Shown: in pieces, positions 2,052-54,508 of the stretch
Numbering within the stretch: position 1 is the first letter of the stretch
Layout of the letters: each line of letters starts with the position of its first letter
Virus record (IMG/VR): IMGVR_UViG_3300037119_003505
Location: 3,733 to 67,732 of that record
Strand: one strand, 5' to 3'
Source of the DNA: a virus
Length of the DNA: 64,000 bases
Translations under genes and position numbers: made by a program
Notes under the pieces: model-generated
Seen by the model: the letters and a program-made list of their open reading frames with translations, nothing else
Database searches by the model: none
What the model was told of the DNA's origin: nothing

Positions 2052-3944
2052 TTACGGAAAGAATCCCAAGTCCACTTCCTCCTGCGGTTCCGGCCACGCG
2101 CCGACGAGTTCGCCATCCTGTTGCTGTTGCGCGAAGTCCTGAAGGTGCATCGGCATCGCCGTGGTGTTGGCGGATGCGGCCTCACGGCTCATGCGCTCCC
2201 ACTCGGCTTCGGCGTTCTTGTTCGCGATGACAGCAATCTCGGAACGGAAGTCGTATTTCGTGCGGCACAGGTCGCACAAAAGCGCCAGACAATCTCCCGA
2301 GTCGGGACTGCGCTTGATCCGTTTCTTCATCACGCGCTTGGATTCCACCGACCGTTTCGTGCTGGTCTGTCCGAGTTTTCCGGTGGTTTCCTTGCGCGCC
2401 AAAAGGTCTTCGATGATGTCGGTTGTCAGTCCCTTGATCTGGCCGCTGCGGATGAAGTCCTTCATCACCATCCACAGTTCCGTCACCCTGCGGTCGTAGA
2501 GTTCGCTGCACGGTTTTTGATCAACTCCGTGTGGTAAGTCGGAAGGTTTGCCGTTGAAATCCACCGCATGAAGGACGGCGTTGTTGAACATGTAAGTTAT
2601 GACGCCGCCAATCTCGCCCGCAGCCCCGGTTGAGTCGTAACCAACATTCTCGGGCGACACACCATGCTCACGACAGAACGCCACGAACTGTTTGGAAATT
2701 TGAATGATAATCGGATCGGGATCGCTTTTGCTGTCAAAAAACTCGGTCGTGCTCGTAACGAGCAACACTCTTTGCCCACTCTTAGTGTGCCCAAGTAGTG
2801 CCAAGGCGGCCTTGTAGGCGTCTCCACCTGATCCGCGTGCCGGATCTAACACCGCCAGACAGGTTGTGCCTCCAGCCCAATCCACATGCGTCTCTGTCAC
2901 TCCACCGTCAACGAGGTCCGCTTCCGAATAGACACATTCCGGATCGCTTCCTTCAGGTGGCCAGAACCCCCGGCATTGACTCCAGTGTTCCAAGGAATCA
3001 GGCCCGTTCGCTTCTTCGCTGGAACGTATGGTTTCGCAAGTCGGCAAGAATGGATAGATGACTCTGCCGGTCAAAACATTCGGCGATTGATACGAGTCGA
3101 ATCGGATGGCGTAGCCAAGCTTCGTTTCCCACTCGTAATCGTTTTCCGAGATCGAATTCCACCCGCCCTTTGGTTCCGAGATGAGTCCGTGTGGATCGTA
3201 TTTAGAGGCAGGGTTGCCGATGCCGATGAACTGGAACCACGGATTCTTTGCGAGGTTGCCTTTGGCGAATTTGAGCAGCGCGTGTGAGAGCTTCGGAAAC
3301 TCGTCACCAACCATGATTACACGCTTGTTGTGACAGCCATCCAGCTTGTCGGCGCTCGCCTTGTCCTGCGAATCTTCGCCGGCCACCAGAGAGATTCCAG
3401 CCTTGTCTGAAATCTTCCGTCCGTCTGCGGAAATCGTGCGGATGATCCCCATGCTGTCCACCAACTTTCCGGGCATGTGGTCCGCTGCGGAGTAGTAGTC
3501 CACAATCGATCCCCAAATCCGTTTCTTGGCTGAGCTTACGGTCGTGGAGGTGACGATCACCATTGTGTTGATCGGATCGCACAGCCAGTTGATGAGCGTC
3601 CAGATCGCGAAGAAATCCGATTTGCCGATGTTTCCAGGGCCGCTCACGCTCAAGTACTGCCACTTACATGAATGCTCCAGCATTTTGTCTGCCCACGGAT
3701 GCCAGATGAACTCCTTCCGTTTGTTGTGTGACCCCCAAATCAGCAGTGCTGCCCGCTTGAAATGTCCGGCCTGCCCGAGTCCGCCAGCATCGACTTTATG
3801 ACTCGCGCGGAAGCAGCGCAACTCGATGCTCAGGTCGTCAATTCCTTCCGGCCACTCAAGGTTGTATTTCACTGGCACGACCGCCCTTTTGCGGATTAGC
3901 GCAACTTTTGCAAGACAAACTCCGCGTAAGCTGTAGGAATACAT
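2052..3944 (-). CDS. terL: Terminase large subunit
   Basis: Walker A SGPGNIGKS, Walker B VGDE, coupling motif GNP, RNase H-like nuclease DPARGSGGD...RSPDSGD; true start may be GTG 3878. Confidence 0.9.
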   Translation of the reverse strand: MYSYSLRGVCLAKVALIRKRAVVPVKYNLEWPEGIDDLSIELRCFRASHKVDAGGLGQAGHFKRAALLIWGSHNKRKEFIWHPWADKMLEHSCKWQYLSVSGPGNIGKSDFFAIWTLINWLCDPINTMVIVTSTTVSSAKKRIWGSIVDYYSAADHMPGKLVDSMGIIRTISADGRKISDKAGISLVAGEDSQDKASADKLDGCHNKRVIMVGDEFPKLSHALLKFAKGNLAKNPWFQFIGIGNPASKYDPHGLISEPKGGWNSISENDYEWETKLGYAIRFDSYQSPNVLTGRVIYPFLPTCETIRSSEEANGPDSLEHWSQCRGFWPPEGSDPECVYSEADLVDGGVTETHVDWAGGTTCLAVLDPARGSGGDAYKAALALLGHTKSGQRVLLVTSTTEFFDSKSDPDPIIIQISKQFVAFCREHGVSPENVGYDSTGAAGEIGGVITYMFNNAVLHAVDFNGKPSDLPHGVDQKPCSELYDRRVTELWMVMKDFIRSGQIKGLTTDIIEDLLARKETTGKLGQTSTKRSVESKRVMKKRIKRSPDSGDCLALLCDLCRTKYDFRSEIAVIANKNAEAEWERMSREAASANTTAMPMHLQDFAQQQQDGELVGAWPEPQEEVDLGFFP

Positions 3945-6355: not shown

Positions 6356-7071
6356 ATACCTTCACCGTCACGGTCGCGAACCGTATTCCGACTGAGCCGT
6401 ACTACCACTACGCCAGTTATCTGAACAGCCTCGCGCGGTTCGGCGTGGTGCCGGAAGTCGTAGGACTCGGCAGGCAATGGCTCGGCCTGATGACCAAGCC
6501 GGTGCGTTTTCGGAATTGGCTGCGTGACCAGCACTTCGAGGAACAGGATCGCGTCATCTACACAGACAGTTGGGACGTGCTGTTCGCCGCCTCGCCTGAC
6601 AGCATCGCGGCCAAGTGCGCAGAACTGTTCGGCGACGCTGTGGTTTACTGCACTGAAAAATCCTGCTGGCCCCTCGCAGAACTGGCGCATCACTTTCCAG
6701 ACGAAGGCACGCCTTGGCGCTACCTGAACGGAGGGGCTATGTGCGGGCCTGCGTGGAAGCTGCGGACGATGTTTGAGAGCATGAATCTGGAGCAGTATGG
6801 ATTCGACCGCGAAGATCTGGACAAGCCACGCATAGAGCCGAATGACGCGGTGCCGCTCGTCAAGGCTTTCGTCGAGCAGCCCGTGCTTGTGAAGGTGGAC
6901 GCCCGCTGTCAGGTGTTCCAGTGCTTCTCGGAATGCAGCGCGGATGAATTCGAGATCACGGAGGCCGGCGTGAAGAACAAGCTGACCGGAACCGTGCCTG
7001 GAATCCTGCATTTCAATGGGGGCAGCAAAGAATCCTTGATGCCTGCGGTTCTGGCCGCGATGAATTTATGA
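6352..7071 (+). CDS. PLOD/LH3-type GT-A glycosyltransferase domain
   Basis: YTDSWDV (DxxD), TEKSCWP, YLNGG, DARCQVFQ, ILHFNG match the order of motifs in the PLOD N-terminal GT domain. Confidence 0.75.
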   Translation: MNTFTVTVANRIPTEPYYHYASYLNSLARFGVVPEVVGLGRQWLGLMTKPVRFRNWLRDQHFEEQDRVIYTDSWDVLFAASPDSIAAKCAELFGDAVVYCTEKSCWPLAELAHHFPDEGTPWRYLNGGAMCGPAWKLRTMFESMNLEQYGFDREDLDKPRIEPNDAVPLVKAFVEQPVLVKVDARCQVFQCFSECSADEFEITEAGVKNKLTGTVPGILHFNGGSKESLMPAVLAAMNL

Positions 7072-25888: not shown

Positions 25889-27652
25889 TTATGGGTAAGG
25901 GTAAAGCCCCTCGATGATGGTGTACTCCCACAGCTTGAACCCTACCTGCCGATGTGTGATCTCAAACACCACCCATTCGTCAAACGGCGGAATTGTCTGA
26001 GTTGGGGTTGCGGGAAGCGAGGCGGTGTAGAAGCCGCCGTCGTAGAAAACGGAGCTTCCGTACAGCCCAACCGTGATCTCTGGATGGATGGTTTCGGGGA
26101 TCGTCCATGTCCTTGAGTCGCTGATCGGCACACCGTCGATCCGAACAGACGCAAATCCCGCCACGATGGTGTCGGCCCGCTTGAGCCACTTCTTGATGGT
26201 CGGCAGGCCGGCGAAGAAGTTCGCACTGGTGGGGTCGGAGGTGTAGCGTTTCGTGAAGCGCGCCACACACGGACCCCGGTACGCCTGCTTGATGTACGCC
26301 CCCATCGCGATGCTGGCCGAATAGCCTGCTGATTCGGCCCGATAGAGCGTCACGGCCTCCAGCACGTCGGGCCAGTAGTTGTAAACGTGCAGCCCGTAGC
26401 TCAGGATGTCGAAGCGGTTGTCCAGATTGATCATCCAGTCAAGATTCCGCCAGTCCCGTTCCGACACGATCCGGATGCTGCGCAGCCCGTCCATCCCCAT
26501 CGGCTTGTACTCGATCTGCACCTCGGAACCGCCCGTGAAGGCTGCCGTCATCTCGGCAGTCAGGAGCGCCGGAGTGGCCGGCATGGCGGATTGCGCGATG
26601 ATCTGTTTGGTCGTGCGGGCTGCCCGAAAGGTCGTCTGATCCACGTCGCTCTCGGGAATCAACGGCCCATAGACCGGCTCGTAGATGCGGATCAGCGCGA
26701 CGATCTTTTCCTTCTCTCGCTCGTAGGATTGGTCGAGAAGTTTCAGGTAGTATCCGACCGTGAAGGTCAGGCTGCTGTGCGTCCCTGTGGCGGCTGCACT
26801 GAGGACAAAAACAGTCCCGCTGGTGATGCTGACGACGGTTGCGCCTACCGGGATGTCGGTGCCGGTAATCAAAGCTCCGGGATACAGCCTGGCGGTGGAG
26901 GCGACCGTGACGGACGTGGTGCCGTTGGTTGCGCCTCCAGTCAGCGGCGTGGTGTCACCGAACACCGCTGTCGTGTAGCCGGGAATCGGACAGGTTGTTG
27001 TGAGGGGTGTTGCTGGAACTTCGGAGTTGCACGGGACGCGCCATGTAACACGAGGCCAGTTAATCAGGCCGTACGGGTAATCGGTTTTTGTGCCGAACAA
27101 TTTAGCGGCAGCGAGGTCGCCAGAGTCCGACAAATCCGGCACCTCCATGAAGACGCGCGTGACCTTGATGAACAGGCTTTGCAACACCTTGTCGTCCACG
27201 TCTTCCTCCTTGTCCGGAAGCACCAGGATGCAGCCCGGAAACATTGCCTCGCTGTCGCCGTTCTTGAGTCCCGGATCTGCGGTGCCGAGCGCGAGCGGTC
27301 CATCTTCAAGATACTGCTCGCGCGGGTAAACGTACGTCCGTGTGATATGCGGGAACGCATTGCTGCCGGTCGGATAATCGACGGTGAAGTTGTAGTCATC
27401 CTGACGCTCCCGGTCTTTCGCGTAAACGATGATTGACCATCCATCGCCAACTTCCTTGTCCGGTGCGATGAGGCAAACCTTGTGCTCGGGCCACTCTATC
27501 CGGTACTTTTCAGGAACTTGGTCTCCATACTGCGGAAACTTGTAGCCTTGCCCGAACGTCTGAACCCGTTCGTAGAGGTAAACGTCCTCTATGGTCGGGG
27601 TGGAGAAAGTTGCCTGAAAGAGCTTCCCAGGCACCGGAACGGTCTGCGGCAT
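25889..27652 (-). CDS. Virion structural (tail) protein with inserted Thr/Gly-rich beta module
   Basis: 587 aa at the head of the virion operon; [35 protein letters not shown] module typical of fibre/surface proteins. Confidence 0.55.
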
Positions 27653-27928: not shown

Positions 27929-28573
27929 TTATAGCATGAGGCTTTCAATCTCCCTTGCCAGTGCGAGAATCAGATTGCGAGTGCCGACACGCTGCTTTGA
28001 TTCACAAACCAACGCATGAAGCGCCTTCGGGAAGTCCTTTACCATCGAAGGCTGTGCGGATTGAACTTGAGTCATCTCCCCGTTGCCTCGCAGCTTCTTG
28101 TACACGATCAGCGCATTCGCCATCAGACTCGCTTTGTTGCGGTCGTTTTTGTACCGTTTCTTGACGAACTTTTTGAACTGGTGCCGATCCAGTCTTGCAA
28201 CAGCCTGAGCGATTTCCGGCGTAGCCGCCATGTGCGACTGAATCCTCTTTGGTTCTGACAGATTCGGCAGCGGCACCGCAACCATTCCGTCTCTCAGTAG
28301 CAGGACTGTTTTCTTGCGCAGTTCCAGTGGTATCCCAGCCCGTGAGATGTTGCCGATCTTGATGTGCTCCTCGATGCCTTCGTGACAACGGCGACAGAGC
28401 GGCATCAGGTCTTCGAGCGGTTCCTTAAAGATGCGGGCGTACGTCAGGTGGTGTACCTGCATCTCTTGCGCCGAGCCGCAGGCTTCGCATCGGTTGCCGC
28501 TTACGGTCATGGCGTTCAGGCGCTTCTCCTTCCACTCAGGGCTGTCCAGATAGTCTCGGTATTCTTGTGTCAT
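27929..28573 (-). CDS. HNH endonuclease
   Basis: YLDSPEWKEKR, CEAC, VHHLTY, LCRRCH. Confidence 0.85.
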   Translation of the reverse strand: MTQEYRDYLDSPEWKEKRLNAMTVSGNRCEACGSAQEMQVHHLTYARIFKEPLEDLMPLCRRCHEGIEEHIKIGNISRAGIPLELRKKTVLLLRDGMVAVPLPNLSEPKRIQSHMAATPEIAQAVARLDRHQFKKFVKKRYKNDRNKASLMANALIVYKKLRGNGEMTQVQSAQPSMVKDFPKALHALVCESKQRVGTRNLILALAREIESLML

Positions 28574-28701
28574 GTTACTAGAATTGAAAGTTACTCACAC
28601 CACTCGCCACGGGCACCCGCTCGCGAAGCTCGCTCTGCCTACTGCCGCAGCCAAGGACCGCCGCGAAGAACTCCCGCATTGAAGTGATTTTAAAAATGCG
28701 T

Positions 28702-29052
28702 GCCCCCCGCCCCCCCCCATTGACAAGAGCAGTGAAAAACTCCTGCCGTCTCATGTAGAAACGGCAGACGTTCGCCACTTGCTGAACCGGGAGCATGCCC
28801 ATCCTTGCCGATTCCGATCACCAGCACCGAAAACAGTATCCGGGCCGATCACCGCCTGAGTATCGGGCTCGTTGCCGTTGCCGAGAAGCATCGGGGCAAA
28901 GAAAAACCCGCTCAATGGTAGCACACGGCGGGTTCTTCCTATGCAGTTTCTCGGCTGCCAAGCATTCGGGCTATTCGCCCAAAGTATGAAAGTTTTTTCG
29001 TCGCGTGCTACTGCGATACCGCCACTCTGCCGCAGCATCCGCACGGGCGCAA
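28702..29052 (-). ncRNA. Structured ncRNA cassette E1 (promoter, attenuator module, conserved 3' module, terminator)
   Basis: TTGCGC-N17-CAGAGT promoter at 29052-29024; hairpins; aligns over about 170 nt with 49000-49162. Confidence 0.6.
28898..28934 (-). terminator. Intrinsic terminator/attenuator of cassette E1
   Basis: AACCCGC...GCGGGTT stem followed by TTTCTTT. Confidence 0.6.
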
Positions 29053-29208
29053 GAACTTTCTTTGGAAACTTTCAGCGCTTCCCGAGCAACAGATCCCACT
29101 CCGGAAACCCGAACCGGTTCTCGATGGTGGGACGCTGGCGACGATTCCGTTTGACGGCAGCGGGCGGCTGTGCGAAACGGGAAGTCCACGCTCGGTAACG
29201 CCGAGCAC

Positions 29209-29258: not shown

Positions 29259-29322
29259 CGGCGAACAGCGCGCTCCCCGAACTTCCTTGCATCCGTGTCG
29301 GTTGCTGCGACGGTGCGGCACT

Positions 29323-29493
29323 ATGACGCTTCAACTCCTGTTCTGGATTCTCATGCTGCTCTGGCTCGTGTTCGGCATCGCGCCGACGTGGCCGGCTGAC
29401 CGCAACTTCCGTCCGTTCGGCGGCTCACTGCTGCTGTTCGCTGTGATCGCGCTGCTCGGCTGGCAGGTGTTCGGCCCCGCACTGCACCGCTGA
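29323..29493 (+). CDS. Small two-TM membrane protein
   Basis: MTLQLLFWILMLLWLVFG...LLLFAVIALLGWQVFGP. Confidence 0.7.
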   Translation: MTLQLLFWILMLLWLVFGIAPTWPADRNFRPFGGSLLLFAVIALLGWQVFGPALHR

Positions 29494-47852: not shown

Positions 47853-48208
47853 ATTACGATCTCACGACACCTTGCGGCCTGTGCCCGTTCCGAAATGATG
47901 CGAAGCGACTGCACGTGTCCGCAGATCGGTTAGCCGAGATGGCGAGCGGCGAGTTCTGCTGCCACAAGACCACGGAAGCCGATGACGAGACAGGATCGTA
48001 TGCGCCAAAGCCTGATTCGCAGCACTGTGCCGGGGCGCTCATATTTCTTGAAGCGCAGGATCGCCCTCACCAAATGATGAGGATTTGCGAACGTCTCGGG
48101 ATGTACGATCGTAAGAAGCTGGACATGACGGCCCCGGTGTTCGGCTCGCTAGCAGAGGTGCGGCGCGCAGATCGGAAGCCTCGCAAATCCAAACAACCCA
48201 CACCATGA
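47849..48208 (+). CDS. Cys-rich conserved-type phage protein
   Basis: PCGLCPFR, FCCHKT, HCAGA. Confidence 0.65.
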   Translation: MNYDLTTPCGLCPFRNDAKRLHVSADRLAEMASGEFCCHKTTEADDETGSYAPKPDSQHCAGALIFLEAQDRPHQMMRICERLGMYDRKKLDMTAPVFGSLAEVRRADRKPRKSKQPTP

Positions 48209-48582
48209 ACCCCGACCTACAAGCCAAGCTGGCAGCCATCCGCACCGAACTGAACCGCACCATCGAACTCGACGGCAAGAGGACGACTGGCGAGTGGCAA
48301 GTCACGGACGGAACGGTTTGGGACGAGAACGGATGCGCGGTCGTATCGGACTACAGCGCAGACACGTCCGCCTTCATCGCGCACGCCTCCCAGTTCAGCG
48401 CCGTCACCGCCAAGGCGCTGCTGCGGGCGCTGGACGGGCTGGAGCGGGAAGCTACGCTTGGGATTCACCTCACCATGTCGTGCGCGTATGGGCGGCTGCT
48501 GCACGAGGACTGTCACAAGTGCGTTGCTGTCGCGGCCCTGCAAGCGATCTGCGAGCTGTGGCCGAAGCTGGAGGCGGCGTAA
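48205..48582 (+). CDS. Ead/Ea22-like protein
   Basis: TTGEWQV...AFIAHA...ALLRAL. Confidence 0.5.
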   Translation: MNPDLQAKLAAIRTELNRTIELDGKRTTGEWQVTDGTVWDENGCAVVSDYSADTSAFIAHASQFSAVTAKALLRALDGLEREATLGIHLTMSCAYGRLLHEDCHKCVAVAALQAICELWPKLEAA

Positions 48583-48590
48583 AAAAGTGC

Positions 48591-49162
48591 TTGCAACGAG
48601 GATTCGATTGCGCTTCTGTGCGGCGTTCGCAGGTGAATTGCGAGCGACGAAACTTTTTGAATTTGTCAACAGCCGCAAGGCCGAGACAGAAGGTTGCGGA
48701 ACCAAATAATCCGAGCGCCGCTGTGATTCACCCACAGCGGCGTTTTCTTTTTCCGACTAGCGGGAAGGATGTTCTTTGAAATTCAGGAGTTGTGAAATCT
48801 GCGCGCGTCCGATTGGCGGTTACACCCGGTCGCGATTGATGGCGGAAAACGCAAACTAGAAACGGGCGCAGGTCGCGTATATGTGCGCGGCAACCTCTCC
48901 AAGCCGGAGGTTCACCGTTTATGAGGATACCATCGGCCAACCCAAAACCATCCTTCTCCTGAATTTCAACGAGCATCCTTCAGCGCCTCAGAAAGACGCC
49001 GATACTGGCGCGGACGTATCGGCTTCGCTACTGCTGCGAGTGCTGGTGATCGGAGCACGCAGGGACAGACCTACCTACCGGCTCGCACGTGGCAGAACGT
49101 CTGCCGTTTCCAACGAGACGGCAGGAGTTTTCTCACTTGCTCTCTCTTGGGGGGCGGGGGGC
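48591..49162 (+). ncRNA. Structured ncRNA cassette E2 (promoter, attenuator, boxA-stem-enclosed cloverleaf, conserved 3' module, terminator)
   Basis: TTGCAA-N17-TTCTGT promoter; multiple stems; no downstream sense gene (meets convergent operon); homologous to E1. Confidence 0.7.
48716..48752 (+). terminator. Intrinsic terminator/attenuator of cassette E2
   Basis: Perfect 10-bp stem CGCCGCTGTG/CACAGCGGCG, loop ATTCACC, TTTTCTTTTT tail. Confidence 0.8.
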
Positions 49163-49320
49163 CAGCTCTTTTAATTATCACTTATCCGGCGGGGCTTCGG
49201 GCGGGACAGGGCGGTGGCGAGAGTGAGCCTTGCGAACGGGTCGCCGAGGCGGGTCACTGGTAGCCTGTCGCCGTACAGCCGAGGCAGCCGATCCGTAGCC
49301 GTAGCCGTCACCGCCCCGCC

Positions 49321-49578
49321 TCAGTGCGGCTTGTGCAGGCGCGACATGATGAAGCGCCAAACGGCTCTGGAGTGCCGGCACGTAAGCCTGCTCGGCACCG
49401 TACCGCTCTTGAGTGGGTAGCCGATCCGGATGCGCCAGTCGGGACAGTCGCAACGCCCCAATGGGAACTTCTCGTCGCGCAAATCCACCGTCCAGTCGAG
49501 ATGCTGCGGATCGGTGGCAGAGATCACGTGAAACAGCCCTGCTTCCGCGTCCGGTAACACGTCCAAAGGCCGGTTCAT
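49321..49578 (-). CDS. SWIM-type Zn-finger protein
   Basis: GRCDCPDW...TCRH. Confidence 0.65.
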   Translation of the reverse strand: MNRPLDVLPDAEAGLFHVISATDPQHLDWTVDLRDEKFPLGRCDCPDWRIRIGYPLKSGTVPSRLTCRHSRAVWRFIMSRLHKPH

Positions 49579-52591: not shown

Positions 52592-54508
52592 TTAGTCATG
52601 TCTCTTTCTCTGTTTGGGTTTGTAAGAACTGTCGCCTTCAACGCGCTTGGCTTCTTTCTCGCCGGCTAGAATGCCTTTGTCGGCAAAGACGCATGTCAGC
52701 GGGTTGAAAAAGAATAGGTATGCTTTTTTGGCGATGTTGCGCCCTTTCACGACGCGCGCGATCATGTGGCTTTCCTCGCCTTCCTCCAGCGCAATCACCG
52801 TATGGGCGTCGTGGCCGATGGCGCGGGATTCTCGGAGCTTTCCCTCTTCGTTTAACTGGCTCACAGCGATCACCGGCACGTTGCATTCCTTCGCCAACGC
52901 CTTGAGCGCACGGCTGATTCCCGCAACCTGTTGCTCACGGGTTTCTCGATCTCCTGTCGTGTCCACAAGTTGCGCGTAGTCCACCACTATCAGCCGGATG
53001 TCCTGCTGCGCACAGAGAGCCACAGATTCCGAGCGGATGTCGGCGCAGGTGTGATACGGATCGTCGAACACCCACAGCGGCAGCTTGGCAATCTCTGGCG
53101 ACCTGTCGCGAATGAGGTTCTGATCTAGTTCGCTGAACTTTCCGGTGTTGAAGACGTTTCGGTTGATGCCCGCGTTCATGGAAAACAACAGGTCGGTGAT
53201 CTCCTCTTCCGTCATTTCCAGCGTAAAGAGCGCCACCCCTTCACCGCGCCTCACCACGGCGTTTACGATGTTGAGCGTGAAGGAACTTTTCCCCACGTTG
53301 GTTTGCGCCGACACGACGATGAAGTTGCCTTTCTTCAATCCACCCGTCTCGGCGTCGAATGTCTTGAATCCCGTCATCAGATTCGGGGCGTCCTGATTCT
53401 TGAACAGAAACTCGTACCGCTGGATCGCGTCCACGACCAAGCGACGCATCGGCAGCGCGGAGATCAGCGGCACTTCCAGACGCTTCAGCAGCAACGCCAC
53501 TCCCGCAATGTCCAAAGCGACGCAATCAGGATTCAGATACAACATCCGCTGAAGCCCGTCCCCGCCTGTCTTGATGCTGCGAACCGCGCCAGGAAGCCGC
53601 GTCAGCCGCGACGGATTCTTGTTCCCTCGGTCGAATCCGAACGGAAATAGCGCGTCCAGCAACGCGCCAGAGAGGTCAGAAAATTCCTTGGCGCTATCCG
53701 CCTTCAGCCTCACGAGCGCGTGGGCGCTTTTGTCGCCACTGGCCGTCACGCACGCAACAGGGATGCCGAGCTTCGTGAACATCGAAAGCTGAACCTCTAT
53801 CGGGAGATCGTCACTCTCGACCAGCACGTGCCGGAACTTCGCCACATCAGCGTCGGTTGTCGCGCCATCCTTTCCAGTTCCAAGCGCGGCCACGGGATTG
53901 AGTCGGACCCACGCCCCAGCCGAGGACTGTGGCACGCCTTGGCTGGTGAACCATTCCACCCAATCCGAACATGGGAGCGTCTTGCCAGCGCCTTGCGGCG
54001 CGGCCTTGCCGTCCTCCTTGAGAAAATACTTCGTGATGATGTTCAGCCGATCATCCGGTTCAAAAATCCGCGTGAACATGGAAGCTCCTGCGGCGTGCTT
54101 CTCTGGAATCGGAACGGGGCTGCCAGCGATGAAGTCCTCCAAGCTTGTGCGGTAGCCGTCCAGCCACCATTCCGCCTGTCCTGTGCGTTGCTCTGGCGTG
54201 GCTGTCCTTGCGGCCTGCGGAGCAATAGGGGCTGTCTTGGCGCGTTTCGCGGCTCTCGGCGCGCTGGCTGTGCCGTAGCCGCTCGGCGCTGGGTTCTTTC
54301 GAACCGCTCCTTCAACCAAGTCGCGGATCTCCTTGTCTGGAATGTCTGGCGAATTGAATCGCTCTCGCAACAGGCTGAACACCATCTCGGTCGGCCACTG
54401 GTTTCCGATCAGCGAAAAGGAAATTTCCTTCATCACAGTATGCCGAGTACCGTTGACGGGATGCGCGTCAAGCAACTGCTGCGTCTTGTCTGGAATGTAA
54501 TAGTTCAC
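52592..54508 (-). CDS. AEP-type primase fused to DnaB-like (SF4) replicative helicase
   Basis: Primase motifs LVESD, SGDKSAH, NPSRLTRLPG; helicase SAQTNVGKS, FTLEM, IVVDYAQL, SQLN, LRESRAIGHDA. Confidence 0.85.
   Translation of the reverse strand: MNYYIPDKTQQLLDAHPVNGTRHTVMKEISFSLIGNQWPTEMVFSLLRERFNSPDIPDKEIRDLVEGAVRKNPAPSGYGTASAPRAAKRAKTAPIAPQAARTATPEQRTGQAEWWLDGYRTSLEDFIAGSPVPIPEKHAAGASMFTRIFEPDDRLNIITKYFLKEDGKAAPQGAGKTLPCSDWVEWFTSQGVPQSSAGAWVRLNPVAALGTGKDGATTDADVAKFRHVLVESDDLPIEVQLSMFTKLGIPVACVTASGDKSAHALVRLKADSAKEFSDLSGALLDALFPFGFDRGNKNPSRLTRLPGAVRSIKTGGDGLQRMLYLNPDCVALDIAGVALLLKRLEVPLISALPMRRLVVDAIQRYEFLFKNQDAPNLMTGFKTFDAETGGLKKGNFIVVSAQTNVGKSSFTLNIVNAVVRRGEGVALFTLEMTEEEITDLLFSMNAGINRNVFNTGKFSELDQNLIRDRSPEIAKLPLWVFDDPYHTCADIRSESVALCAQQDIRLIVVDYAQLVDTTGDRETREQQVAGISRALKALAKECNVPVIAVSQLNEEGKLRESRAIGHDAHTVIALEEGEESHMIARVVKGRNIAKKAYLFFFNPLTCVFADKGILAGEKEAKRVEGDSSYKPKQRKRHD

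Follow-up and report, generated by a model that had tools for sequence, protein, structure and literature searches.

Terminator-ended leaders are a classical means by which phages time the expression of their genes. The putL and putR elements of phage HK022 are formed by two stem-loops that modify RNA polymerase and contain no terminator, the loops of phi29-family packaging RNAs (pRNAs) form 4-nt intermolecular pairings from which a ring on the portal is assembled, and the L5-L13 interaction of cobalamin riboswitches is a kissing contact with the regulatory hairpin. In the guanidine-IV (mepA motif) riboswitch, a kissing loop formed with the regulatory hairpin decides termination (PMC11611296), and in Stx phages the terminated PR′ RNA is the small RNA (sRNA) StxS (PMC7547250). 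Two structured RNA cassettes, E1 on the minus strand and E2 on the plus strand, are described here from an uncultured phage known from soil metagenome reads. The window analysed is a stretch of 64,000 nt with a GC content of ~59%, corresponding to bases 3733-67732 of the 74,062-bp IMG/VR virus record IMGVR_UViG_3300037119_003505 (estimated completeness 94%). The strongest feature of both cassettes, which a previous sequence-only reading of the same DNA listed separately and not in its description of the pair, is complementarity between the loop of the first hairpin (H1) and the loop of a downstream intrinsic terminator (T1). The favoured interpretation, for which the odds are put at about even (probability ~0.5), is that E1 and E2 represent one promoter-proximal, cis-acting attenuator leader RNA cassette in duplicate.

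Covarying loop-loop pairing between H1 and T1

In all five available copies of the cassette core, namely E1, E2 and one copy each in the phages G001, L103 and L248, seven nucleotides of the H1 loop are the exact Watson-Crick complement of seven nucleotides in the T1 loop, and no two copies use the same letters. The H1 and T1 words are GUAGCAC and GUGCUAC in E1, GUGACAC and GUGUCAC in L103, GGUGAAU and AUUCACC in E2 (where the whole 7-nt T1 loop is complementary), AUUAGGG and CCCUAAU in G001, and AUACGAC and GUCGUAU in L248, the last pair having been read by eye. Shuffling of the terminator loop gave p values of 0.0008-0.005 per copy in the four copies tested (0.002 for E1 and 0.005 for E2). 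As MAFFT mis-registers T1 and H2 between members of the family, the helix was assessed by RNAalifold, by pair counting and by a descriptor scan. Given the five sequences, RNAalifold chose the loop-loop helix unaided as the principal helix of the consensus, five of its positions showing double changes. Pair counting on the specified structure found the 7 pairs 100% paired, with 5 changed on both sides; when one partner was slid by 1-3 columns as a control, pairing fell to 26-40%, and the observed covariation score was not equalled in any of 500 shuffles. The descriptor scan covered 656 kb of related phage DNA and returned five instances of a hairpin loop complementary over at least 7 nt to a terminator loop, against 0-1 in shuffled genomes; these were the four cassettes present in the scanned set and one instance inside a G001 gene.

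Covariation among homologs, on which the sequence-only reading had staked its RNA interpretation, is accordingly present in the H1/T1 loop helix. The defining feature of this architecture class, a 5′ hairpin loop that complements 7 nt or more of a downstream intrinsic-terminator loop, occurs in E1, E2 and three orthologs. In E1, L103 and G001 the complementarity grows to 9-12 nt if H1 opens, and pairing extended in this way would give an H-type pseudoknot that stacks on the stem of the terminator. The pattern of substitutions argues strongly for a contact of one of these two kinds, kissing loop or pseudoknot.

A separate pair of a hairpin and a terminator-like hairpin is found in G001 at 67948-68027 (+), with the 7-nt loops AUGCGCU and AGCGCAU; it lies antisense within a coding region and may represent either chance or an antisense RNA.

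Relatives and genomic position of the core module

The five core copies are independent of each other; those outside the window are located at L077:7969-8160 (G001), L103:3912-3741 and L248:4846-5000. Searches with a 587-aa protein encoded near E1 led to G001-G003, L076, L078, L079 and L098-L105, JGI and ENA contigs included. G001 is IMGVR_UViG_3300005338_000001 (Ga0068868_100000029), a complete 78.5-kb phage. Among the relatives reached in this way, the module was identified only in G001 and in L103/L104, whose cassettes are 1 nt apart. The HNH protein encoded behind E1 led to L248, a different 66-kb phage from Logan assemblies, in which the cassette was recognised by reading the 158-nt gap ahead of the HNH gene; a further relative, found through P0008 (a Logan contig of SRR12927082 encoding a 242-aa HNH homolog), has a gap of 157 nt ahead of its HNH gene, which is the size of the L248 cassette. 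The relatives carry a single cassette.

The nearest copy to E1 is that of L103 (the E1 5′ module matches L103/L104 at 71% over 178 nt, blastn E 6e-22), and the nearest to E2 is that of G001 (78% over 58 nt within the E2 stretch 48646-48714, E 4e-5). Although blastn detects no mutual similarity between the 5′ modules of E1 and E2, the two are tied together via these orthologs, the third link being that of E1 to G001 (E 1.5e-8). A blastn search of both cassettes against 50,697 GenBank phage records gave no match. Pattern scans of IMG/VR for the invariant 15-mer of the 3′ module, the E1-type linker, the H2 word of the E2/G001 type, linker plus H2, and P2 loop plus 15-mer gave, among the matches listed, G001 together with chance or coding matches, and scans of genome contigs by protein alignment and by DNA pattern revealed no prophage relative; the lone DNA-pattern match in a genome contig lies inside a Chloroflexaceae gene and was set aside as chance.

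The lack of a recognisable family noted in the sequence-only reading was confirmed by an Rfam 15 scan of the whole window, with 0 matches at gathering thresholds. Permissive scans of both cassettes, at E values up to 5, remained at chance level (E 0.3-3.6, 13-20 bits against thresholds of 37-93). The C4 antisense RNA fell below threshold and was absent even among the sub-threshold matches, and cobalamin and guanidine riboswitches and group I introns likewise gave no match. A text search of a library of papers produced no description of a phage kissing-loop terminator leader, including in front of homing-endonuclease genes.

The position of the core relative to genes is largely shared. In E1, G001 and L248 it immediately precedes an HNH gene that is orthologous in the three phages, and the T1 tail of L248 stops 5 nt short of the HNH ATG; in L103 the module opens an operon whose first gene is RNase H-like. 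With promoters predicted from a conserved box, E1, G001, L248 and L103 thus have the leader placed before the first gene of a unit, and E2 does not. The placement of the core ahead of orthologous HNH genes (three phages) or an RNase H-like gene (one phage), with the L248 tail only 5 nt from the ATG, points to a cis-acting attenuator. The sequence-only reading had taken the RNA itself as the likely product, which does not sit well with four of five copies directly preceding a gene, the position of a cis-acting leader or attenuator.

That earlier proposal has nevertheless to be weighed. According to it, the ~125-nt RNA ending at T1 and/or the longer RNA ending at T2 would be stable trans-acting or structural molecules, the downstream genes would be incidental, and the kissing loop would shield the ends from nucleases or link the molecules head to tail, in the manner of the phi29 packaging RNA loops. 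As had been pointed out, no sense gene follows E2, after which comes a minus-strand open reading frame (ORF) at 49321-49578, and G001 contains an orphan promoter-to-terminator unit of ~130 nt under the same box at a convergent junction. The linker is more conserved than the stems, as expected of a seed or a protein-binding site, a loop-loop contact would be likelier after release than during termination, and there is a precedent in the terminated PR′ transcript of Stx phages, which acts as an sRNA (PMC7547250). However, besides the location of four of the five copies immediately upstream of a same-strand gene, no convincing complementary target for the 15-mer was detected in the window (the best sites, with 2-3 mismatches, are about what chance gives; the linker was not searched), and the loop words are private to each copy, so that no common trans partner is apparent. 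That the RNA itself is the product is considered unlikely. The orphan position of E2, together with that of the G001 unit at a convergent junction, suggests that orphan units may act in their own right, either as free-standing RNAs or by insulating converging operons.

The G001 unit (65530-65700, +) begins with a second GAAGAAAGTTCTTGCGC box right after a stop codon and reaches an intrinsic terminator at the convergent junction ~130 nt further on. It resembles E2 as an orphan promoter-to-terminator unit; its RNA is unrelated and has no loop-loop complement.

Architecture of the 5′ module

The core is built in the order A-rich stretch and box GAAAGTTCTTGC, H1, linker, H2, H3, purine tract and T1, with H2 and H3 recognised in the four copies other than the shorter one of L248. 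The box varies as AAAGTGCTTGC in E2 and as AAAATGCTTGC, and is more divergent in L248 (GAAACTTTCCCGTTGACC). In this genome it occurs at E1 and E2 only, and it is present twice in each of G001, G002 and G003. H1 follows ~30-45 nt after the box and consists of the stem UCGC(G)/(C)GCGA and a loop of 7-8 nt; the aligned sequences all have the same stem, and the loop changes in concert with that of T1. The linker ACUUUCAUACUUUGG has 13 nt identical in E1 and L103 and close variants in G001 and E2. H2 has the form GCC-GNRA-GGC in three copies, and H3 is a covarying helix of 4-5 bp (GCAG/CUGC in E1, CCAG/CUGG in L103, CAGGA/UCCUG in G001 and GGUU/AACC in E2). T1 is a GC-rich hairpin followed by a UUUUUCUUU-like tail, after which the word CCCGAUG appears in both E1 and L103.

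In E1 (minus strand throughout), the promoter-like region at 29024..29075 comprises the A-rich stretch and then the box GAAAGTTCTTGCGC, with a -35-like TTGCGC at 29052-29047, a 17-nt spacer and CAGAGT at 29029-29024. H1 (29001..29016) has the stem UCGC/GCGA and the loop AGUAGCAC, of which the kissing word occupies 29011-29005. The single-stranded linker CGAAAAAACUUUCAUACUUUGG (28981..29000), with the 13-mer TTTCATACTTTGG that is identical in L103, leads to H2 (GGGC-GAAUA-GCCC, 28980-28968) and to H3 (GCAG-CCGAGAAA-CUGC, 28958-28943), the helix that covaries among the copies. T1 (28897..28932) is formed by the stem CCCGC/GCGGG and a 16-nt loop with the kissing word at 28924-28918, and it ends in the tail UUUUUCUUUG.

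In E2 (plus strand), the promoter-like region AAAGTGCTTGCAA (48584..48619) begins 2 nt past the stop codon of the gene at 48205-48582 and contains TTGCAA at 48591-48596, a 17-nt spacer and TTCTGT. H1 (48625..48645) has a 7-bp stem and its kissing loop at 48632-48638; the following stretch at 48646..48714 holds the linker, H2 (GCC-GCAA-GGC, 48672-48681) and H3 (GGUU-GCGG-AACC, 48692-48703); and T1 (48715..48752) has an 11-bp stem, its 7-nt loop at 48726-48732 and a U-tail. The CGAAA(AA)ACTTT linker, the two small hairpins and the U-tailed terminators listed in the sequence-only reading are thus found in both cassettes, with two terminators (T1 and T2) in each. A terminator scan flags T2 in E1 and both T1 and T2 in E2; T1 of E1 was read from the sequence and then recovered by the descriptor scan.

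Only a part of the earlier TTGC-N17 promoter proposal holds, as the box is conserved and stands at the expected position, but the -10 position is not conserved. The promoter call accordingly relies on the conservation and position of the box, and the start of transcription in E1 and E2 is a prediction from sequence. Two other assignments were considered and dropped. For a sigma-54 promoter, or for a -7 box of the Bacteroidota kind at the linker, the spacing is wrong, and H1 must lie inside the RNA given its covariation (judged by eye). A Sigma70_r4 protein was considered as the cognate factor; it is encoded in G001 and L079 only and not in this genome.

The same promoter box is found in G002, G003 and L099-L102 with other leaders behind it. 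At G003 37451 and 36498 (-), at G002 19919 and 18966, and in L100 and L101, it heads two other leader types, and in one such leader of the G002/G003 lineage the small-hairpin word UUCCUCC complements GGAGGAA in the large loop of a terminator-like hairpin before an ATG.

The 3′ module and putative read-through transcripts

The module behind T1 that comprises P1/P2, T2 and the G-run is specific to this phage. Between E1 and E2 it is 72% identical over 199 nt by blastn (E 2e-24), and a local alignment across T2 and the G-run scored 113 against 26 ± 3 in shuffles. Its length had been put at ~170 nt, which was too short: the homologous unit comprises ~285 nt, reaching 28602 and 49254, and its global alignment has 202 identical positions in 296 columns with 16 gap runs. 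The exact shared blocks had been correctly located, namely GTGCTGGTGATCGGA at 28827-28813(-) and 49040-49054(+), GAACGTCTGCCGTTTC at 28773-28758(-) and 49095-49110(+), and GAGACGGCAGGAGTTTT beginning at 28752 and 49115, and none of the three has another perfect copy in the window. The runs G9-C-G6 (28718-28703) and G6-C-G6 (49149-49161) are likewise present. E1 and E2 fold better than shuffled sequence (z -4.0 and -5.5), their stems hold G-U pairs, and the terminators are predicted on the stated strands only; the earlier argument from G-U wobbles for one transcribed strand stands, as does the description of the cassettes as paralogous, modular, strand-specific RNA elements.

In E1 the module starts with a mini-hairpin, CUCG[10 nt]CGAG, at 28885-28868, within a structured region at 28820..28885 that also includes P1 (28866-28845, folding energy -6.1 kcal/mol) and P2 (28849-28820, -13.7 kcal/mol, with 3 compensatory pairs according to RNAalifold); the invariant GUGCUGGUGAUCGGA lies at 28827-28813. 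T2 (28732..28773) has an 11-bp stem and a U-tail, was detected by the terminator scan and has a folding energy of -23.6 kcal/mol. The region beyond it that is homologous to E2 (28602..28731) carries the G-run, TTTTTAAAATCACTT at 28696-28682 and a GC-rich tail, which stops 29 nt short of the HNH start codon at 28573. In E2, P1 (48998-49023), P2 (49018-49047, -13.5 kcal/mol), the invariant 15-mer (49040-49054) and T2 (49095..49135, again from the terminator scan) are followed by the homologous post-T2 region (49136..49254), with its G-run, TTTTAATTATCACTT at 49169-49183 and a GC-rich tail, and then by the 3′ end of the minus-strand gene 49321-49578.

P1 is formed by CCGAUAC/GUAUCGG, and P2 by AUCGGC, five variable pairs, the loop UACUGYU and then GCUGGU. 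The two helices share AUCGG and are therefore mutually exclusive. The sequence-only reading had described an invariant loop on variable stems, an assignment that is ambiguous: the stablest hairpin, P2, uses GCUGGU as its 3′ strand, and a weaker alternative hairpin shows the 13-mer as a loop. The arms of the T2 stem are identical in E1 and E2 (~-23.5 kcal/mol), and T2 is followed in both by the G-run, a TTTT(T)AA..ATCACTT word and the GC-rich tail.

Downstream of T1, where E1 and L103 have the 4-bp mini-hairpin, E2 and G001 have a stem of 22-23 bp, designated P0. In E2 it is an insert relative to E1 (48767..48980) whose 23-bp stem (48767-48789/48958-48980) encloses 168 nt and has GUUCUUUGAAA in its 5′ arm; its folding energy is -30.5 kcal/mol in sense and -24.2 in antisense orientation. 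The P0 of G001 (L077:8206-8339) has 22 bp, encloses 90 nt and reaches -34.2 kcal/mol, and is likewise weaker in antisense. The 5′ arms of the two share GUUCUUUGAA, and the distal arms differ with compensation. P0 encloses branched RNA, and the length of its stem suits RNase III. GUUCUUUGAA, which lies after T1 in E2 and G001 and is absent from E1 and L103, is presumably comparable to boxA, a resemblance for which a literature text search gave no support; boxA is a site on nascent RNA that is bound by NusB/NusE upstream of terminators that are overridden, as in rrn leaders and lambda nut.

The presence of conserved, strand-specific structure past T1 implies that read-through transcripts exist and matter, and the three double changes of P2 and the differing distal arms of P0 in E2 and G001 support a functional read-through RNA.

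Conserved peptide coding, which had been named as one of the findings that would overturn an RNA interpretation, was not found. In the E1/E2 alignment 13 of the 16 gap runs are not multiples of three, stop-codon patterns differ, and the invariant 15-mer is read in different frames in E1 and E2; the frame shifts in the gaps and in the 15-mer exclude conserved peptide coding. Small proteins or leader peptides might still be imagined for two short frames of E1, one of 47 codons at the CCCGAUG after T1 and one of 33 codons after a TAAAAT, and an AUG right after the T1 tail is kept in E1, L103 and L248, serving in L248 as the HNH start codon. With the broken frames just described, and with short peptides that vary in both length and sequence in E2, G001 and L103, such a function is scarcely credible. 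The TAAAAT is a -10-like sequence 7 nt ahead of an ATG (28578-28690, -), and the 33-codon frame, which is not conserved in E2, ends 4 nt before the HNH start; in G001, TTTTAAGTGATCCC lies directly 5′ of the HNH ATG (L077:8610-8632). These sites may represent a second, leaderless-type start behind T2.

The 3′ modules are also inverted repeats 20 kb apart in which an element acting at the DNA level could be sought, flanking a 20-kb segment for recombination or inversion, serving packaging (cos/pac) or binding a protein. GATCGG/CCGATA words recur, and the G-rich run presumably resembles the G-rich cohesive-end sites of some cos phages. Yet the helices are kept by compensatory changes and the G-U pairs are valid on one strand only, at 72% identity the repeats are too divergent for homologous recombination, the gene for the large terminase is far off (2052-3944), and relatives have a single cassette. 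The kissing words of E1 and E2 differ within one genome, so that one DNA-binding protein could not read both H1/T1 regions, and RNA pairing can explain the repeats where such a protein cannot. A DNA-level element is therefore highly improbable.

The G-runs bear on a further possibility, that the 3′ modules are transcription-primed replication origins in which an R-loop or hybrid quadruplex at the G-run primes DNA synthesis, with the folds and terminators setting the frequency of firing. In both copies the G-run lies 20-30 nt after T2 and is followed by an A/T-rich stretch on the RNA-like strand, and G001 has a G7 at the same place; E2 adjoins a replication operon (DnaB-like helicase, Phg_2220_C), the L103 cassette precedes an RNase H-like gene, and the arrangement is one that we take to be similar to ColE1 RNA II and mitochondrial CSB II. 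However, two strong terminators stand ahead of the G-run, no G-run is found beside the cassette in L103 or L248, cumulative GC skew has no clear turning point at either site, and two inverted origins 20 kb apart would be unusual. Origin function is considered very unlikely.

Besides its G7 run, G001 has the word ATCACTT in reverse complement, a short way ahead of the HNH start codon. In the unrelated phage L248, a G17 run occurs at ~7035-7055 within a 717-nt gap. The E1 G-run is without differences in contigs of runs X1 and X3.

Gene neighbourhood

Family matches are scarce among the ORFs of the window; the Pfam and PHROG scans took in ~40 ORFs, the neighbours of E1 and E2 included. No tRNA gene was found in the window. 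E1 stands at the head of a minus-strand gene block that extends over ~16 kb, from 28573 down to ~12.7 kb. Its first gene encodes the HNH protein (27929-28573; PHROG HNH families, best E 6e-11), and other members are a 73-codon ORF, the 587-aa protein (25889-27652), which adjoins E1 and has no family, and large ORFs, including one of 2505 aa. For the 587-aa protein about six homologs were found in a set of 5.8 billion protein clusters, and in one relative it is 811 aa long. The sizes of these genes suggest a late or virion operon, although the terminase sits elsewhere: the sole terminase-like match is a 630-aa ORF for the large subunit at 2052-3944 on the minus strand (phrog_2, 8e-9).

Upstream of E2, the gene at 48205-48582 is the last of a plus-strand block, and E2 faces the 3′ end of a minus-strand replication block at a convergent junction. 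The final gene of this replication-side operon (49321-49578, minus strand) encodes 85 aa with the CxC...CxH pattern typical of SWIM zinc fingers and has no Pfam match at E values up to 0.01; the block also encodes a DnaB-type helicase (52592-54508; DnaB_C, 1e-45) and a Phg_2220_C protein. The idea that E2 is the remnant of a lost HNH cassette was rejected, there being no similarity to the E1 HNH gene after 49254 (33 vs 24 ± 4 in shuffles).

Divergently from E1, the plus-strand gene at 29275-29493 encodes a small hydrophobic protein and is preceded by the word GGATGCAAGGAAGTTCG, which is conserved and also found in G001 (L077:9175-9420). A contig of run X5 joins 29109 straight to 29275, and thus a variant without these 165 nt exists. 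Many unrelated metagenome contigs align to 29323-29380, within the first ~50 nt of the small membrane-protein gene, where the summed contig depth rises to ~800 against ~128 on the flanks; this pile-up suggests a widely shared N-terminal, signal-like sequence.

Functional interpretation

As an attenuator leader, the cassette is proposed to operate as follows. The conserved box would start the transcript, with H1 as its first element, and past the linker and the two small hairpins RNA polymerase would meet the intrinsic terminator T1, the loop of which would form 7 pairs with that of H1, giving a kissing loop or, when extended, an H-type pseudoknot. The majority of transcripts would stop at T1 to give a ~125-nt RNA locked end to end, and the fraction that reads through would carry P0, the mutually exclusive P1/P2 and T2 before reaching the genes. 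Some phage or host factor would increase read-through. The kissing loop is proposed either to belong to the gate or to lock the RNA once released; the pairing would tune termination or RNA stability. E1 would in this way throttle or time the HNH gene (27929-28573) and the ~16-kb leftward operon, and E2, as an orphan copy, would make RNA only and insulate the plus-strand operon from the opposed replication operon.

Several points weigh against attenuation by such a leader. As the -10 is not conserved, the start of transcription is conjectural; E2 lacks a gene that it could regulate; and the pairing engages the loop of the terminator rather than its stem and may matter for the released RNA only. 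The comparisons draw on four to five independent 5′ modules, and for the 3′ module on two paralogs only. Contigs found to carry the sequence are DNA contigs of soil metagenomes only, and no transcript was among them; one contig from a possibly-RNA run covers the promoter side only, with a 165-nt deletion upstream, and says nothing on transcription either way. Neither an antiterminator nor any other regulator came to light: the idea of a conserved regulator gene immediately 5′ of the cassettes was dropped, as the upstream genes looked unrelated between phages by eye, and the Pfam and PHROG scans named no antiterminator, a weak negative since most of the ORFs have no family.

A more elaborate version of the attenuator, put forward tentatively and thought unlikely as a whole, is a self-contained, address-coded transcription gate of a so far undescribed kind, in which a private 7-nt pair would lock the terminator. 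In this phage it would act in two stages, T1 kissing and then the P1/P2 switch with T2, and the read-through RNA would gain a further task through the orphan E2 and the G-run, such as that of a trans RNA or R-loop priming beside the replication genes. If the pairing does tune termination or RNA stability, the cassette would constitute a simple programmable RNA part in which any 7-mer pair works, and it would provide a handle on the throttling of mobile HNH genes and late operons in uncultured phages.

Comparison with known systems

The closest arrangement among phages is plausibly that of the lambdoid PR′-6S-tR′ region, released by Q, where a promoter is likewise followed by a strong intrinsic terminator within ~125-200 nt and by a long operon; a short terminated RNA is the default product there too, and this by-product can itself function. 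Unlike the lambdoid region, however, the present locus has no Q-like gene, Q-binding element or sigma-dependent pause signal that could be recognised, and the lambda leader is without pairing between a 5′ hairpin and the terminator loop and has neither the second terminator nor the orphan copy seen here. In pairing an upstream loop with the loop of a termination-deciding hairpin, by a tertiary contact within a 5′ leader, the cassettes resemble the guanidine-IV and cobalamin riboswitches. The loops of those riboswitches are conserved, as they form the ligand site, whereas here only the complementarity is conserved and no ligand pocket is evident.

HK022 putL and putR share with E1 and E2 the occurrence of two paralogous, promoter-proximal structured RNAs on opposite strands and a cis action through terminators, but in the present case the terminator belongs to the fold, and there is no similarity in sequence or model. 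In the P4 CI RNA (seqB with seqA/seqC) and the C4 RNAs of P1/P7, short leader loops also complement other sites of the same transcript with letters that differ between relatives, and the sequence-only reading had named them as loose architectural analogies; those RNAs, however, are processed out and act in trans on ribosome-binding-site regions or cause termination, and here both partners are loops of one small unit. The pRNA of phi29 is likewise a small phage RNA with two loops in which complementarity rather than sequence is conserved, but it is not a terminator-ended leader before a gene, and its fold and context are dissimilar. A terminator loop held by a covarying kissing contact with a 5′ hairpin is a design outside the families of Rfam, and in this GC-rich soil phage it appears with accessory hairpins, a conserved linker, a two-terminator version and an orphan copy.

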